Positions 54,292 to 58,590 of a stretch of 64,000 nt of DNA are shown piece by piece (positions within the stretch are counted from its first letter, which is position 1; every line of letters begins with the position of its first letter). The position numbers and the translations under genes were made by a program. Under the pieces are notes generated by a model. That model searched no databases. It saw only the letters and a list, made by a program, of their open reading frames with translations, and was not told where the DNA came from. Location: positions 32,001-96,000 of IMG/VR virus record IMGVR_UViG_3300036819_000087, one strand, 5' to 3'. Source of the stretch: a virus.

Positions 54292-54966
54292 TTAGTCGTT
54301 CCCGGCGGGGCCGGTGCCGTACCGGCCCGCGAGGATGTAGGCGGCGTGGCCGTCGAACTGGCCCCGGTTGGGGTCGGCTGGCTCAGCCCAGCCGGTGAAC
54401 GGCGAGTAGTAGACGATGGTCACACCGAGCATGGTGGCCGGGTTGCGTTCGCGGTACATCGCGAACGTAGTGCCGGGGGTGTTCGGGGCGAATCCTTCCT
54501 GGGTGTTGCAGCTAGGGCACAACCATCCGCGGATCAGGCCGGTCAGGTGGTCGTGGTCAAGGAACTGCGACCGGCCCCCGCAGATGGCGCACCGGCCGGC
54601 TTGCCACTCGACGAGCATCCCCCACCCGTCGTCATCCGCCGTCCGTGTGCGGTGCGAGTCCTCGACCGGCCAGTCCCAGCACGCGGGCGGCCGTTGCCGC
54701 TCGGCCAGGGCGGCCCGCTTGGCCGGCTCATCCAGCGCGGCGGCCTGCCGGGTCAGCACGTCCAGCAATGCGTGCTCAGAGTCGGTCAGGTGTTTCCGGC
54801 ATGATGGCGGTGTCTCGACCGGGGGCACCGGCAGGCCGAGCATTTCGGGGACGCGCCAGTAATCACCCGGCCGGGCGACACGATCGTTCCGGCACGGTGT
54901 GCCCCTTTTCGCCGGGCGCCCGCATTTAGTCACAGGCCGGCCGATGTCATCGGGTTCTTCTTCCAC
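54292..54966 (-). CDS. Endonuclease VII-domain protein
   Basis: QAGRCAICG...DHDHLTGLIRGWLCPSCN. Confidence 0.88.
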   Translation of the reverse strand: MEEEPDDIGRPVTKCGRPAKRGTPCRNDRVARPGDYWRVPEMLGLPVPPVETPPSCRKHLTDSEHALLDVLTRQAAALDEPAKRAALAERQRPPACWDWPVEDSHRTRTADDDGWGMLVEWQAGRCAICGGRSQFLDHDHLTGLIRGWLCPSCNTQEGFAPNTPGTTFAMYRERNPATMLGVTIVYYSPFTGWAEPADPNRGQFDGHAAYILAGRYGTGPAGND

Positions 54967-55970
54967 CTGTCCACGTCGCGGACGTACTTCATCAGGATGG
55001 GGGAGCCGTCGCGCCAGCCGCCGTGGCGGCCGATCGAGAGCAGGTCGGCTCCTCCCAGGTAGGCGCCGGTCGCGCCGCCCGCCCGGAGACTGTGTGCCCT
55101 GATGGCGTCACCGGAGATCCCCGCGGTCAGCGCGGCCCGGTGCATGATGCTTCCGATCGCTTTTCCGGTCAGGCGGCCGTCGGCCGCTGCGCGGCCGGCG
55201 AGGTCGACACCGGGTTCGCCGTAGATGTGCCCATGGCGGTCCACGTACCGCAATAGCGGACCCGAGGTGATGCCGCGGGCGGCCAGGACCGCGAGCCACG
55301 CGCGGGTGAGACGGACCGGGCAGGTGAGCGGGTCGGAACCGTAGGGGACGGCAACCTTCCGCCCGGCCGCCATCTGGTCCCGCTTAGCCTTCCGGATGGT
55401 CACGTCCATCCCTTGCTCGACCTCGGCGAGATCACCGATGGACAAGCGGACCAGTTCGCTGCGCCGCGCCATCATCGCCCAGCCGAGCACCAGCACGAGC
55501 CGGTCCCGCAGGAACAGGACAGAGTCACCGTCCAGGGCCTCGGTGATGGCTTTGAGCTGGCGGACGGTCAGGGCGGCGGCCGGCCGCTCGTTCGGCTGCC
55601 CCCGGTCGGCTCGCTCGTTGCGGTATGTCTTCACGACGGACCGGGCGGGGAGTGTGTCGGGTGGCTGGTGGCCCCCGAGTTTGTGAATGACCCGGACCGA
55701 GGAGACGGCCCGCATGATCGTCGCCGGTGCCTTGTTCTCGTCGGCCAGGTGGGAGGCGTACTCGGCGAGGGTCTCCGCCGTGCACGGCAGCGCGGCCCGG
55801 CCAGCTCCCGCGCACCATTCGGCGAAGATCTTCCAGTCGCTGGCGTACGCCTGCCGGGTTGATTCGGGGACACTCGCAGCGATCCGGTCGAGGACCCGGG
55901 CGGACACTGTCGTATCGGGGCCGGCTCCAGGCGCACGGTAGGCAACCACATCGGCTGTGTTCACACACAC
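54930..55970 (-). CDS. Tyrosine recombinase, Cre-like architecture
   Basis: STRQAYASDW..F..WC N-domain; RDR...RRSEL, KRDQ, HSLRAG, HGGW, KY catalytic set. Confidence 0.92.
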   Translation of the reverse strand: MCVNTADVVAYRAPGAGPDTTVSARVLDRIAASVPESTRQAYASDWKIFAEWCAGAGRAALPCTAETLAEYASHLADENKAPATIMRAVSSVRVIHKLGGHQPPDTLPARSVVKTYRNERADRGQPNERPAAALTVRQLKAITEALDGDSVLFLRDRLVLVLGWAMMARRSELVRLSIGDLAEVEQGMDVTIRKAKRDQMAAGRKVAVPYGSDPLTCPVRLTRAWLAVLAARGITSGPLLRYVDRHGHIYGEPGVDLAGRAAADGRLTGKAIGSIMHRAALTAGISGDAIRAHSLRAGGATGAYLGGADLLSIGRHGGWRDGSPILMKYVRDVDRWKKNPMTSAGL

Positions 55971-56177
55971 TCCCGTCTGGGATACCAGATCCCCCGCTTA
56001 TAAGACTCCAGAATACCGTGGGTTGCGGCCCTGTCGCGGGACGGTTGACGGCGTGTTGCGTAACCTGCCCGGCCTGCTTGTTGCGGTCCTGTTGGCGGTG
56101 GGTTGCGGGTTGCCGCCACCTTGCCGGGCCGTTGCCTGGTACTGGATTCCCGGCGCGGACGGGGTTACCGTGCAAGC

Positions 56178-56399
56178 ATGGACAAGAACCCGCGCATAGG
56201 AAAGCGCATCGCAGCCACCATCCTCGCCGCCGTGATGGGAGGCGGGGCCCTGGCCATCGCGGGCCCGGCCTACCTCTACCACGGGAAGGCCCCCCAGCAC
56301 AGTTCGGCCTACCTCTACCACGGGAAGGCCCCCGCCACGGACTGGGGAGTCGCTGTCGCCGACGGTGCCGCTAGCCCGGACTACCTCTACCACGGCTGA
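56178..56399 (+). CDS. Secreted peptide precursor with three YLYHG repeats
   Basis: 73 aa: basic N-region, hydrophobic core, AYLYHGKAP x2, terminal DYLYHG; TACCGT 6 nt before ATG suggests a leaderless transcript. Confidence 0.8.
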   Translation: MDKNPRIGKRIAATILAAVMGGGALAIAGPAYLYHGKAPQHSSAYLYHGKAPATDWGVAVADGAASPDYLYHG

Positions 56400-56544
56400 C
56401 CGCCCATCCCCCTCTGATCCCCGGCCCGGCACCTCACACACTCACCCGCGCCGCGTCCCACCGACCGGTCCCGGCCTGTTATCCCAAGGCCAATGGTGGA
56501 GGTGACCGGGCCGGTCTATGCCTACTAGGCTTGGCCGTGTGAGC

Positions 56545-56775
56545 ATGACAGCCCGTGACCTGGCCCTGGTGGCCCGGACACGGGCCGATCTGGTCTCGGG
56601 CCGGGCCGCGGCGGCGCGGAAAGCGGCCGATGTGGGGCTCGGGGAGATCGCCGGGGCGCTCGGTGTGTCTCATCAGGCGGTGTCGATGTGGGAGCGGGGT
56701 CTTCGGCGGCCGCGGGCTGGGCACGCCCTGGCCTATGGGCGGGTCCTCGCGCAGCTCACCCGCGCCGCCGCCTAA
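56545..56775 (+). CDS. Small XRE HTH protein
   Basis: ARKAADVGLGEIAGALGVSHQAVSMWERGLRRP. Confidence 0.85.
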   Translation: MTARDLALVARTRADLVSGRAAAARKAADVGLGEIAGALGVSHQAVSMWERGLRRPRAGHALAYGRVLAQLTRAAA

Positions 56776-57635
56776 TCTCCCCAGGCGTCGAACGCGGCGG
56801 CCAGCAGTTCCCGCGATTCGGTTTCGCTGGCCGCGGCCGACCACATCTCCTCGAACGCCATCTCGTGCCGCCACACCGTGTCTTCCTCGTCGAGGCGGTC
56901 CAGGTCGCCGCCGAACTGGGGCACGAGCACCTCGTCGGGGACCGGTACCCCGGCCAGGGCGGTGAACGAGGCGTGGATGAACGGGGGCAGGTCTCCCGGT
57001 ACCTCGTCGGAGTCGAGGGGCAGCACCCGCACCGACACCGGGGCGGGGACCTTCAGTATCCGCTCGACCTGCTGCCGCATGACCACTTGGTCGCCGAACT
57101 GCCGGCGCAAGGCGGGCTCGCCGATGAGCGCCCGGACGGCCAGGCCGCCGCGCTCGAACCGGGCCTGCGGGGCGGTGATCTCCTCAACCAGCGCCCGGAC
57201 TGCTCCCGGGGGCCGGGGGAAGATCCGCGCCTGGGAGGTCAGGACGGCGGCCGCGTAGCCGCTGGTCCGCAGGAGGCGGGGCAGCGTCAGGGGGGCCCAC
57301 TCCAGGATCGTGTTCGCGGCCGTGAACGTTTCCGGTGGCCTGCCGGGCCCGCGCCACGGCTTGCCGCCCGCCGCGAGGATCTGGTCGGCGAGGTCGAGGA
57401 TGGCGGCGCGGCGGCGGGCCGGCACGTTGTACAGGTCGAGGAGCTTGGCGAGGTCGCTGACTCGGACCGGGTGCGCGCAGTTCTCGATCCGGGACACTTT
57501 CGAGATGGACCAGCCTGTGTGGCGGGCCACCCACTCGCTGTTCTCGCCGAGGGCGTGCCGGGCCTGGAGGAGTGCGGTGGCTATCCGCCGGTCGAGCACT
57601 GATGCGACCGTCATGCGCTGATAATAGGCACGCAA
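56772..57635 (-). CDS. XRE regulator with DUF5753-like C-terminal domain
   Basis: TGWSISKVSRIEN...LLDLY; LPRLLRTSGYA; IGEPALRRQFG; VRVLP. Confidence 0.88.
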   Translation of the reverse strand: MRAYYQRMTVASVLDRRIATALLQARHALGENSEWVARHTGWSISKVSRIENCAHPVRVSDLAKLLDLYNVPARRRAAILDLADQILAAGGKPWRGPGRPPETFTAANTILEWAPLTLPRLLRTSGYAAAVLTSQARIFPRPPGAVRALVEEITAPQARFERGGLAVRALIGEPALRRQFGDQVVMRQQVERILKVPAPVSVRVLPLDSDEVPGDLPPFIHASFTALAGVPVPDEVLVPQFGGDLDRLDEEDTVWRHEMAFEEMWSAAASETESRELLAAAFDAWGD

Positions 57636-57655
57636 CTAGCCGTGCAAAAAGCATG

Positions 57656-57699
57656 AAAACGGCCCCCGAACCGTCGTCACCCGGTTCGGGGGCCGTTTT
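57656..57699. terminator. Bidirectional hairpin terminator
   Basis: AAAACGGCCCCCGAACCG...CGGTTCGGGGGCCGTTTT. Confidence 0.75.
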
Positions 57700-58052
57700 C
57701 GCTGGTCACGCTCCCACATCTGCCGGGCCGCCATTTACGCGGCGCGCCGGCCGCGCATTGCGCTCGACCTCCCGGTGTCTTTCTTCCCTGTCCCCCAGCC
57801 CGGCCGTGGTTCAGCGCGTGATCAGACGAACCGGCCCGGCCGGTTGGGTGGCCGGCCGGGCCTGGTCTTTCGCGGCCGGCCCGTACCCGGTCCCACCCGG
57901 TACGACCCCGGCCCTTCGGGAACCCCGCAGAGCTTTCCCAGGGAGATCTCACCCCCCTGTCACCGCAGGCTGGTGACCTGCGGCCGACCCCAGCCCCCCT
58001 CTGCTTGCGGTACCACCCGTCGGCGTTCAGGGGGCCGGGCACGCCTGCGACA

Positions 58053-58538
58053 CTACTCCCCATCACCCGCCGCGTCAACGGGAACATTGACGGGAGGTGA
58101 GGGGGTGGGCTCCTTGACGGCGGCGGGCCGGTCCCGGGCCGGGGCCCACGTCTTGCGGCCGCCGAGCCGCCGGTACCGCTGCTGCATCGCCTGTTTCGAT
58201 GGGTAGCCGAGCTGGTCGGCGAGCTGATCCCAGGTCAGGCCCCGGTTCATCGCCGCCTCGATCAGGTCCTGCTCGAAATAGTCGAGCCGGAACCGCTCCC
58301 CCGGTATCAGGCGGAGCGCGTCGACCACATCGTCGGCGAGGATCTCATCACCGGCCAGGCGGGGCACGGTGGCCTCCTTGCCGAAGCTGAGGGCAAGATG
58401 CACGTCGCTGAGCGCGTCTGCGGGAAGGATGCGCGGCTGGCCCGGTGTGTTGTAGCTCGCGTTGTAGCGGTCCAGGCGGGCGAGCACCTCGGTCTCGGCC
58501 TTGCGGGCGAGGTACCGGTGCGGGCTGGGGTTCGTCAT
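58053..58538 (-). CDS. HTH regulator (RxxGxxWxx-LG-SKQAxQQRY type)
   Basis: LIEAAMNRGLTWDQLADQLGYPSKQAMQQRYRRL. Confidence 0.78.
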   Translation of the reverse strand: MTNPSPHRYLARKAETEVLARLDRYNASYNTPGQPRILPADALSDVHLALSFGKEATVPRLAGDEILADDVVDALRLIPGERFRLDYFEQDLIEAAMNRGLTWDQLADQLGYPSKQAMQQRYRRLGGRKTWAPARDRPAAVKEPTPSPPVNVPVDAAGDGE

Positions 58539-58570
58539 GCTCCCCCGACGATAACCCCCCCACCCCGCTG

Positions 58571-58590
58571 CGTCAATGTTCACGTTGACG
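58571..58590. promoter_or_regulatory. Palindromic operator CGTCAATGTTCACGTTGACG
   Basis: Between divergent genes; overlaps TTGACG...TAATGT promoter; copies at 58073 and 9327. Confidence 0.7.

Follow-up and report, generated by a model that had tools for sequence, protein, structure and literature searches.

Can a phage of soil bacteria encode a secreted peptide signal in several copies per precursor? We analysed a 64,000-nucleotide (nt) stretch of the IMG/VR virus record IMGVR_UViG_3300036819_000087 (the window; bases 32001-96000 of the 107,282-bp record, which is rated 96% complete), in which a small gene at 56178..56399 (+ strand; positions are those of the window unless the record is named) stands between a tyrosine recombinase and two XRE-type regulators. 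The gene encodes a 73-amino acid (aa) protein that joins signal-peptide features to a disordered tail carrying three copies of the pentapeptide YLYHG; the copies co-vary among relatives of the protein, and the order of the genes around it recurs in soil variants of the phage. The comparative evidence strengthens the observation first made from the sequence alone, which is that this is a real and unusual gene. Our leading, and still tentative, reading is that its product is a multi-copy secreted pro-peptide that works like the Phr and AimP precursors and lies outside the RRNPP family.

To our knowledge, peptide communication by phages (arbitrium and phage-borne Rap-Phr) is known only in Bacillota and always with RRNPP receptors of the tetratricopeptide-repeat (TPR) type. 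If the reading is true, phage peptide signalling would extend to the Actinomycetota and a new class of receptor would be implied; if the peptide acts on the host, it would be a new kind of prophage-encoded extracellular factor. Development in the host's bacterial group depends on imported oligopeptides. Quorum sensing by peptides of the Phr kind counts as a trait of Bacillota; the Actinomycetota are noted for signalling by small molecules (PMC10075063).

A 73-aa protein with a predicted export signal and three YLYHG copies

The open reading frame (ORF) at 56178..56399, which closes with a stop codon at 56397-56399, is a genuine coding gene. Its G+C content by codon position (0.68/0.54/0.86) equals that of the integrase gene, its codon-usage score is positive, and the overlapping frames look non-coding. 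A Sec-type signal peptide is predicted over aa 1-28 or 1-31, with an n-region charge of +3, a hydrophobic core at residues 11-21 and cleavage sites AIA↓G and GPA↓Y (heuristic scoring). The YLYHG copies lie at aa 32-36 (56271-56285), aa 45-49 (56310-56324) and aa 69-73 (56382-56396); the first two read AYLYHGKAP, and the third reads DYLYHG directly before the stop codon. A repeat search (repeat family D1) found A-YLYHG-KAP encoded by two exact 29-nt copies (56266-56294 and 56305-56333; 29/29 nt identical) that recur at a 39-nt period. The third DNA copy (56377-56405) is 76% identical to these, with the pentapeptide codons TAC CTC TAC CAC GG unchanged and the flanks different. An earlier sequence-only reading of this DNA had described just such a secreted precursor, had traced its first two copies to a 29-bp duplication and had pointed to the survival of YLYHG in other flanks at the third; the translation, the codon-position composition, the signal features and the repeat coordinates bear these statements out.

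AlphaFold2 (AF2), run with the family alignment described below, models residues 5-21 as a helix and the rest as coil, at a mean predicted local distance difference test score (pLDDT) of 53, and the ESM Atlas model of the protein has a pLDDT of 0.44. As modelled, the exported 45-aa tail has no fold of its own, which fits a pro-peptide.

The arrangement is rare in the sequence around it. A degenerate DNA pattern of three motifs matches the window once, as against 0.00 matches in 100 shuffles, and a scan of the phage and of 40 chromosomal XRE-DUF5753 loci for ORFs that begin with a signal-like segment and repeat a motif towards the C-terminus returned the peptide ORF as its sole match. Run against three sequence collections, the same degenerate pattern retrieved tandem repeats and chance matches only. 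Pfam and PHROGs hold no family for the protein, and ESM Atlas feature matches to small actinobacterial "secreted proteins" scored 0.84-0.86, which is under the range considered reliable, and were treated as leads only. The pentapeptides YLYHG, YLLHG and YVLHG appear in no relevant literature.

Co-variation of the copies in six proteins

How is the motif shared among related proteins? A search of about 15 billion proteins returned five relatives, none in a named family, so that with the window ORF the family has six members and 19 motif copies. Three copies of YLLHG occur in each of P0002 (74 aa), P0003 (64 aa) and P0004 (75 aa), four copies of YLLHG in P0012 (88 aa), and three copies of YVLHG in P0007 (63 aa), which is encoded on a 151-kb JGI contig. 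Four other matches of the hidden Markov model search (P0005, P0006, P0008 and P0009) are repetitive or of low complexity and were rejected as relatives, and a pattern specific to P0007 had no match in IMG/VR. Four low-G+C JGI metagenome contigs (L007, L008, L017 and L018), together with P0008, contain tandem repeats that translate to runs of C-[AT]-YLLHGWYP; these are chance matches to both the profile and the DNA pattern and have no kinship with the family.

The family motif is Y-[LV]-[LY]-H-G, with copies uniform inside each protein and variable among proteins. All five motif positions are identical in 21/21 within-protein copy pairs, as against 68% identity between proteins at positions 2 and 3, and the Tyr, His and Gly are invariant in 19/19 copies, in proteins that are 51-73% identical over their whole length. 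The residues before the Tyr (-4 to -1) are 19-67% alike within a protein and 31-61% alike between proteins. Downstream of the internal copies, the residue after the Gly (Lys, or Ser in P0004) co-varies in 8/8 pairs, as do the longer flanks (KAP/KAP, KAS/KAS, SPT/SPT). The placement of the copies is also constant: in 6/6 members the stop codon directly follows the terminal copy, and the first copy adjoins a predicted small-residue signal-peptidase site. Sec-type features (a positive n-region, a hydrophobic core and a small-residue c-region) are present in all members, five of them scored heuristically and P0012 by reading; the cleavage site of P0002, GPV↓Y, is non-canonical. Conserved residues outside the motif are a His before copy 2, an (E/D)-(W/L)-G after copy 2 and a Pro before the last copy. 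Because the flanking residues are not homogenised, the pentapeptide itself appears to be the conserved unit: Y-x-x-H-G, perhaps with a basic residue that would be trimmed, in which a constant frame holds two allele-like positions.

Concerted repeats of this kind could also be a by-product of DNA homogenisation, by slippage or gene conversion, in an accessory gene that evolves quickly and that either is barely expressed or makes a product with no sequence-specific partner. Copies 1 and 2 match at synonymous sites too, the downstream flanks of the internal copies co-vary, copy number changes, and the sequencing runs on record with the stretch are all DNA and none RNA, as such a history would have it. 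The upstream flanks, however, are not homogenised, Tyr, His and Gly have stayed unchanged in every copy while the proteins diverged, and the architecture is stable in all six members. The last copy is the hardest to explain in this way: both of its flanks differ and only about 15-17 nt are common, a length short for recombination, yet it always matches. Homogenisation is thus a poor account of the last copy, and it is from this copy that we infer selection to be behind the identity of the copies. The sharp N-terminal boundary of copy identity likewise fits selection on the peptide unit better than gene conversion. Selection on the pentapeptide had been suggested from the window alone; the five homologues, in which all three or four copies co-vary, speak for it, and homogenisation as the whole explanation is unlikely.

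Selection for identical copies does not by itself require that the copies be released. The 45-aa polypeptide might instead stay intact, either free or held in the membrane by an uncleaved signal-anchor, and serve as a multivalent ligand at the cell envelope whose three or four identical motifs bind an oligomeric or repeated target; as a prophage moron it could then mask a receptor or prevent superinfection, or it could occupy a host oligopeptide-binding protein. A multivalent binder of one site would need identical copies just as a pro-peptide would, the residues conserved outside the motif would have a place in it, and the cleavage site rests on heuristic scoring, with that of P0002 non-canonical. 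Lysogenic-conversion genes (prophage morons) are commonly located next to the recombinase and att site, and the peptide gene lies beside the recombinase and a possible att or arm-site array. An intact ligand has no obvious use, however, for a copy placed exactly at the C-terminus and another close to the mature N-terminus, no fold is predicted for it, and its linkers vary freely in length and sequence, to the point that a whole extra copy is tolerated. We regard it as the main rival reading, though a less likely one than the pro-peptide.

The invariance of Tyr and His at fixed spacing in every copy would also suit the core of a modified peptide matured by the host, either a Tyr-His cross-linked member of the ribosomally synthesised and post-translationally modified peptides (RiPPs), similar to biarylitides and cittilins or, as a multi-core precursor, to fungal ustiloxin, or a peptide that chelates metal through Tyr and His. 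Fungal RiPPs include multi-core precursors with signal peptides, and bacterial biaryl RiPPs include short Tyr/His cores. Yet no P450, radical-SAM enzyme, tyrosinase or other maturase was found among the neighbouring genes or in a scan of about 40 of the larger phage proteins, bacterial RiPP leaders do not usually carry a Sec signal, and cross-link or ligand residues would not demand that positions 2-3 be identical among copies. A modified peptide is therefore quite improbable.

A further resemblance comes from the phage itself. Five head-module proteins (record positions 12853-32932, mostly left of the window), among them a portal extension (at aa 798 of 1169) and a 1210-aa protein, each carry one K-[VE]-G-P-[HE]-G-Y-[IVS]-H-G-[WY] tag. 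The peptide motif might be akin to this tag (K-V-G-P-[HE]-G-Y-x-H-G-W) and be read by the same factor, perhaps a targeting partner or maturation protease: the phage proteome has six occurrences of GP-x4-HG, one in each of the five tags and one in copy 1 of the peptide (GPAYLYHG). The register of the Tyr differs, however (G-Y-x-H-G in the tags, Y-x-x-H-G in the peptide), by our estimate chance alone would give about 0.5 matches to GP-x4-HG in 35,327 aa, copies 2 and 3 of several family members have no GP, and the tags are cytoplasmic, while the peptide has an export signal. The resemblance is probably due to chance, and kinship between tag and peptide is very improbable.

How would a pro-peptide be put to use? 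In the reading that we favour, cleavage by signal peptidase after about 28-31 residues would bring the first Y-x-x-H-G to the mature N-terminus or close to it, the last copy would have its C-terminus fixed by the stop codon, and extracellular proteases would free the remaining units, with the co-varying Lys or Ser after each internal Gly trimmed away. Each precursor would thereby yield several molecules of one peptide, which would be YLYHG here, with a calculated monoisotopic mass of about 651.3 Da, and YLLHG or YVLHG in the relatives. The short peptide would act as a diffusible signal from infected or lysogenic cells, in which Tyr, His and Gly would form the constant frame and positions 2-3 would confer strain specificity.

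Gene order and the receptor question

The recombinase gene (54930..55970, - strand; Pfam Phage_integrase 5e-09 with a SAM-like N-domain; PHROG integrase), an integrase or Cre-like resolvase, is divergent from the peptide gene and is the sole recombinase of the phage. Downstream of the peptide gene and on the same strand follows a gene for a small XRE/Cro-like helix-turn-helix (HTH) protein of 85 aa (56518..56775, + strand, with an alternative start at 56545; Pfam HTH_3 2.2e-06; PHROG transcriptional repressor families), and beyond it an XRE-DUF5753 regulator of 280 aa (56772..57614, - strand; HTH_31 1.5e-09, DUF5753 1.2e-29, phrog_9908 3e-41). The open frame of the regulator extends over 56772-57635 (- strand), and its start was taken at ATG 57614; PF19054 scores over its cut-off in the protein. 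The Pfam assignments agree with the neighbours named in the sequence-only reading. The two XRE genes converge, with a 4-nt overlap at the stop codons (56767-56775) and no intervening terminator, so that transcription of either one would continue antisense into the other.

Each of the two facing transcription units has a promoter candidate of its own. A sigma-70-like promoter (TTTGCA-16-TATTAT; 57621..57648, - strand) stands 6 nt before ATG 57614, which predicts a leaderless XRE-DUF5753 transcript, and it is the only promoter-like site that a consensus scan found in 54800-58200 (0.2 expected). A 19-bp perfect hairpin terminator (57655..57700, - strand) is placed so as to close the upstream lysis/late operon and insulate this promoter. 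The peptide gene has a candidate weak promoter (TGGATT-17-TACCGT; 56143..56171, + strand), read from the sequence 6 nt before its ATG; it falls under the threshold of the scan, and its -10 element is unchanged in one of the soil variants described below (X4). Because a Shine-Dalgarno sequence is absent before the ATG, the peptide transcript is probably leaderless and activator-dependent. Directly upstream of this promoter lie ten GTTG-like boxes, direct repeats in three blocks with exact 11-bp phasing (56022..56135, + strand). Exact GTTG occurs eight times in about 110 nt, whereas the window averages 0.64 per 207 nt, which makes this the densest cluster in the window. The boxes could serve the recombinase as arm-type sites (in attP or a resolution site), or they could form an array through which an activator acts on the weak peptide promoter. 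A search for inverted GTTGCG pairs found none, and GGTTGCGG was discarded as a genome-wide operator, with 8 occurrences against 6 expected.

Read as a whole, the gene order looks like a two-promoter switch layout beside a recombinase. The likeliest output of the peptide would be to bias the lysogeny switch, because the co-oriented Cro-like XRE gene, the separately promoted XRE-DUF5753 gene head-on to it and the adjacent recombinase together form the layout of a lysogeny switch.

Is this cassette kept elsewhere? We aligned contigs from other soil runs to 54900-57700. A 6.2-kb contig from run X4 has, in unchanged order, the peptide gene, the gene of the small XRE protein and the two ends of the gene for XRE-DUF5753, and its differences in the peptide gene, when translated, give exactly P0002 (A>V, Y>L, P>S); a second X4 contig spans the recombinase. 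A 1.7-kb contig from run X2 is a third variant, in which 403 nt from the signal-peptide region to the end of the small XRE gene are replaced. The recombinase diverges by about 6% (68/1161 nt), as against 14-16% in the alignable peptide and XRE genes, and most of XRE-DUF5753 is below 80% identity between variants. The cassette thus resembles an immunity or specificity region that outpaces its neighbours in divergence. The homologues that the sequence-only reading had called for do show a conserved repeat in all members and linkage to XRE genes in these two further soil variants; all variants belong to one phage lineage, so the soil variants are not independent contexts.

What might receive the signal? 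AF2 folded the XRE-DUF5753 protein with 31 homologues at a pLDDT of 90.5, and in the model the DUF5753 domain (residues 86-280) is a mixed alpha/beta domain and not a helical repeat. The best matches to this domain by VIA-align are domains of the PLD/Nuc fold at Z 8-10: the SauUSI N-domain (Z 10.2), Zucchini (Z 9.4), FAM83B DUF1669 (Z 8.7), the TrmBL2 C-domain (Z 8.5) and Nuc (Z 8.0). Foldseek ranked the same set weakly, and a PDB sequence search with the protein matched the HTH domain only, with no solved relative of DUF5753. No conserved His or Lys is present in DUF5753 across the 31 sequences, so the domain is probably non-catalytic, and the model points to a PLD-like sensor or interaction module. 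A predicted complex of the DUF5753 domain with the 45-aa mature part scored 0.00, which speaks neither for nor against binding.

Several observations weigh against the pro-peptide reading. A six-frame search of the complete 107-kb genome gave no TPR_12 or RNPP_C match. DUF5753, which is not known to bind peptides, is modelled as an alpha/beta domain of the PLD/Nuc kind, and no gene for a peptide of this sort lies within 1.5 kb of any of 40 chromosomal XRE-DUF5753 loci. In DNA the first two copies are the same, down to a rarer GGG codon, so homogenisation does occur and could account for part of the concerted pattern. The six members all come from uncultured samples and make up a tiny, possibly single-lineage family, and context is known for two of them only, both in the same phage lineage. 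There is also no established precedent for such peptide signalling in Actinomycetota (PMC10075063).

These results settle part of what had been proposed. The absence of an RRNPP/TPR receptor, noted before within the window, holds for the whole genome, and the cassette is not a member of the RRNPP family, because it has no TPR_12 or RNPP_C protein and the only nearby regulator of sensor type has a PLD-like C-domain. The absence of a DUF397 partner holds as well: a six-frame search of the entire phage with DUF397 (PF04149) gave nothing at E <= 1, and the space downstream of XRE-DUF5753 is taken by the convergent small XRE gene. The suggestion that DUF5753 senses the peptide did not fare as well, since the fold is PLD/Nuc-like, the chromosomal loci have no peptide gene and nothing links the two. 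The receptor would be either a phage regulator, reached after uptake of an Opp/BldK type, or a host sensor. The full scheme would be an actinophage communication system with three or four Y-x-x-H-G copies per precursor, strain-specific positions 2-3, a lysogeny-switch output and a non-RRNPP receptor, this being either XRE-DUF5753, with peptide input to a pseudo-PLD domain in place of DUF397, or a host sensor; it would be the first of its kind, and as a whole it is doubtful.

The closest likeness is to the Rap-Phr systems, in which Sec-exported propeptides carry 1-4 identical or similar pheromone copies, including those of the Bacillus phages phi3T and phi105, and yield several mature peptides each (PMC11343458). 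Tandem Phr propeptides of temperate phages share with the phage protein its small size, its Sec export, 1-4 copies of a 5-6-aa unit and the placement of one copy at the C-terminus, and they mature through signal peptidase and extracellular proteases, as we propose here. They differ in belonging to Bacillota, whereas the gene described here is in a high-GC actinophage, has no adjacent Rap/TPR receptor and shows no sequence similarity to them. The arbitrium system of SPbeta-like phages (AimP/AimR/AimX) likewise places a secreted peptide gene in a lysogeny-control region and sets variable specificity positions in a constant frame, but AimP has one C-terminal copy and an adjacent TPR receptor, AimR, where the phage gene has XRE and XRE-DUF5753 neighbours.

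Convergence itself has a parallel in the enterococcal conjugative plasmid pCF10, whose prgQ peptide-precursor operon and prgX regulator gene meet head-on and whose PrgX is an RRNPP receptor. By this likeness, convergent transcription could sharpen a peptide-controlled switch; in the phage, convergence is read from the gene order and the absent terminator. The phage regulator also has the HTH-DUF5753 architecture of the Streptomyces XRE-DUF5753/DUF397 pairs (WhiJ/BldB-like, Scr1/Scr2) and the size of 15 S. coelicolor proteins; it differs from them in having no DUF397, in its predicted leaderless promoter and in its identity of only about 30-35% to the chromosomal paralogues. XRE-DUF5753 proteins have been described only as partners of DUF397 in Streptomyces (PMC10364602).

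The phage and its host

The phage is a siphovirus, and its record encodes a large terminase, a portal, minor tail proteins and a tape-measure protein, along with a holin and an endolysin for lysis. The tape-measure ORF runs unbroken across the joined ends of the record (record positions 104863-107282 and 1-478; 985 codons from stop to stop), which indicates that the genome is complete, circularly permuted and without host flanks.

Which bacterium does this phage infect? Its G+C content is about 70% over the whole length, and the runs that hold the stretch are all DNA runs of soil metagenomes. The closest phage relatives of the recombinase, at about 30% identity, are those of the Streptomyces plasmid-prophage ZL12 and of phage Gilgamesh, and paralogues about 30-35% identical to the DUF5753 regulator are present in 65/81 Streptomycetaceae genomes sampled. 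From the G+C content, the Streptomyces-phage-like recombinase, the Streptomycetaceae paralogues of DUF5753 and the soil runs, the host is most likely a soil actinomycete.

Close relatives of the phage were sought in several collections. The 50,697 GenBank phages contain no match to the peptide, the cassette DNA or the XRE-DUF5753 protein, the peptide is absent from the PLSDB plasmids, and no close relatives of the integrase or of XRE-DUF5753 were found in IMG/VR. Two related-locus queries run against IMG/VR, GTDB genomes and JGI metagenomes confirmed no relative.

Since the lone recombinase resembles that of ZL12, the phage may possibly live as a plasmid-prophage. Its further genes include RecT, several DNA methylases and a GntR/UTRA regulator. 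Between XRE-DUF5753 and a gene for a 176-aa HTH protein (58053-58583), 417 nt (57636-58052) have no convincing ORF and are dense in GC-rich hairpins, among them the 19-bp terminator and a 13-bp stem at 57833-57862.

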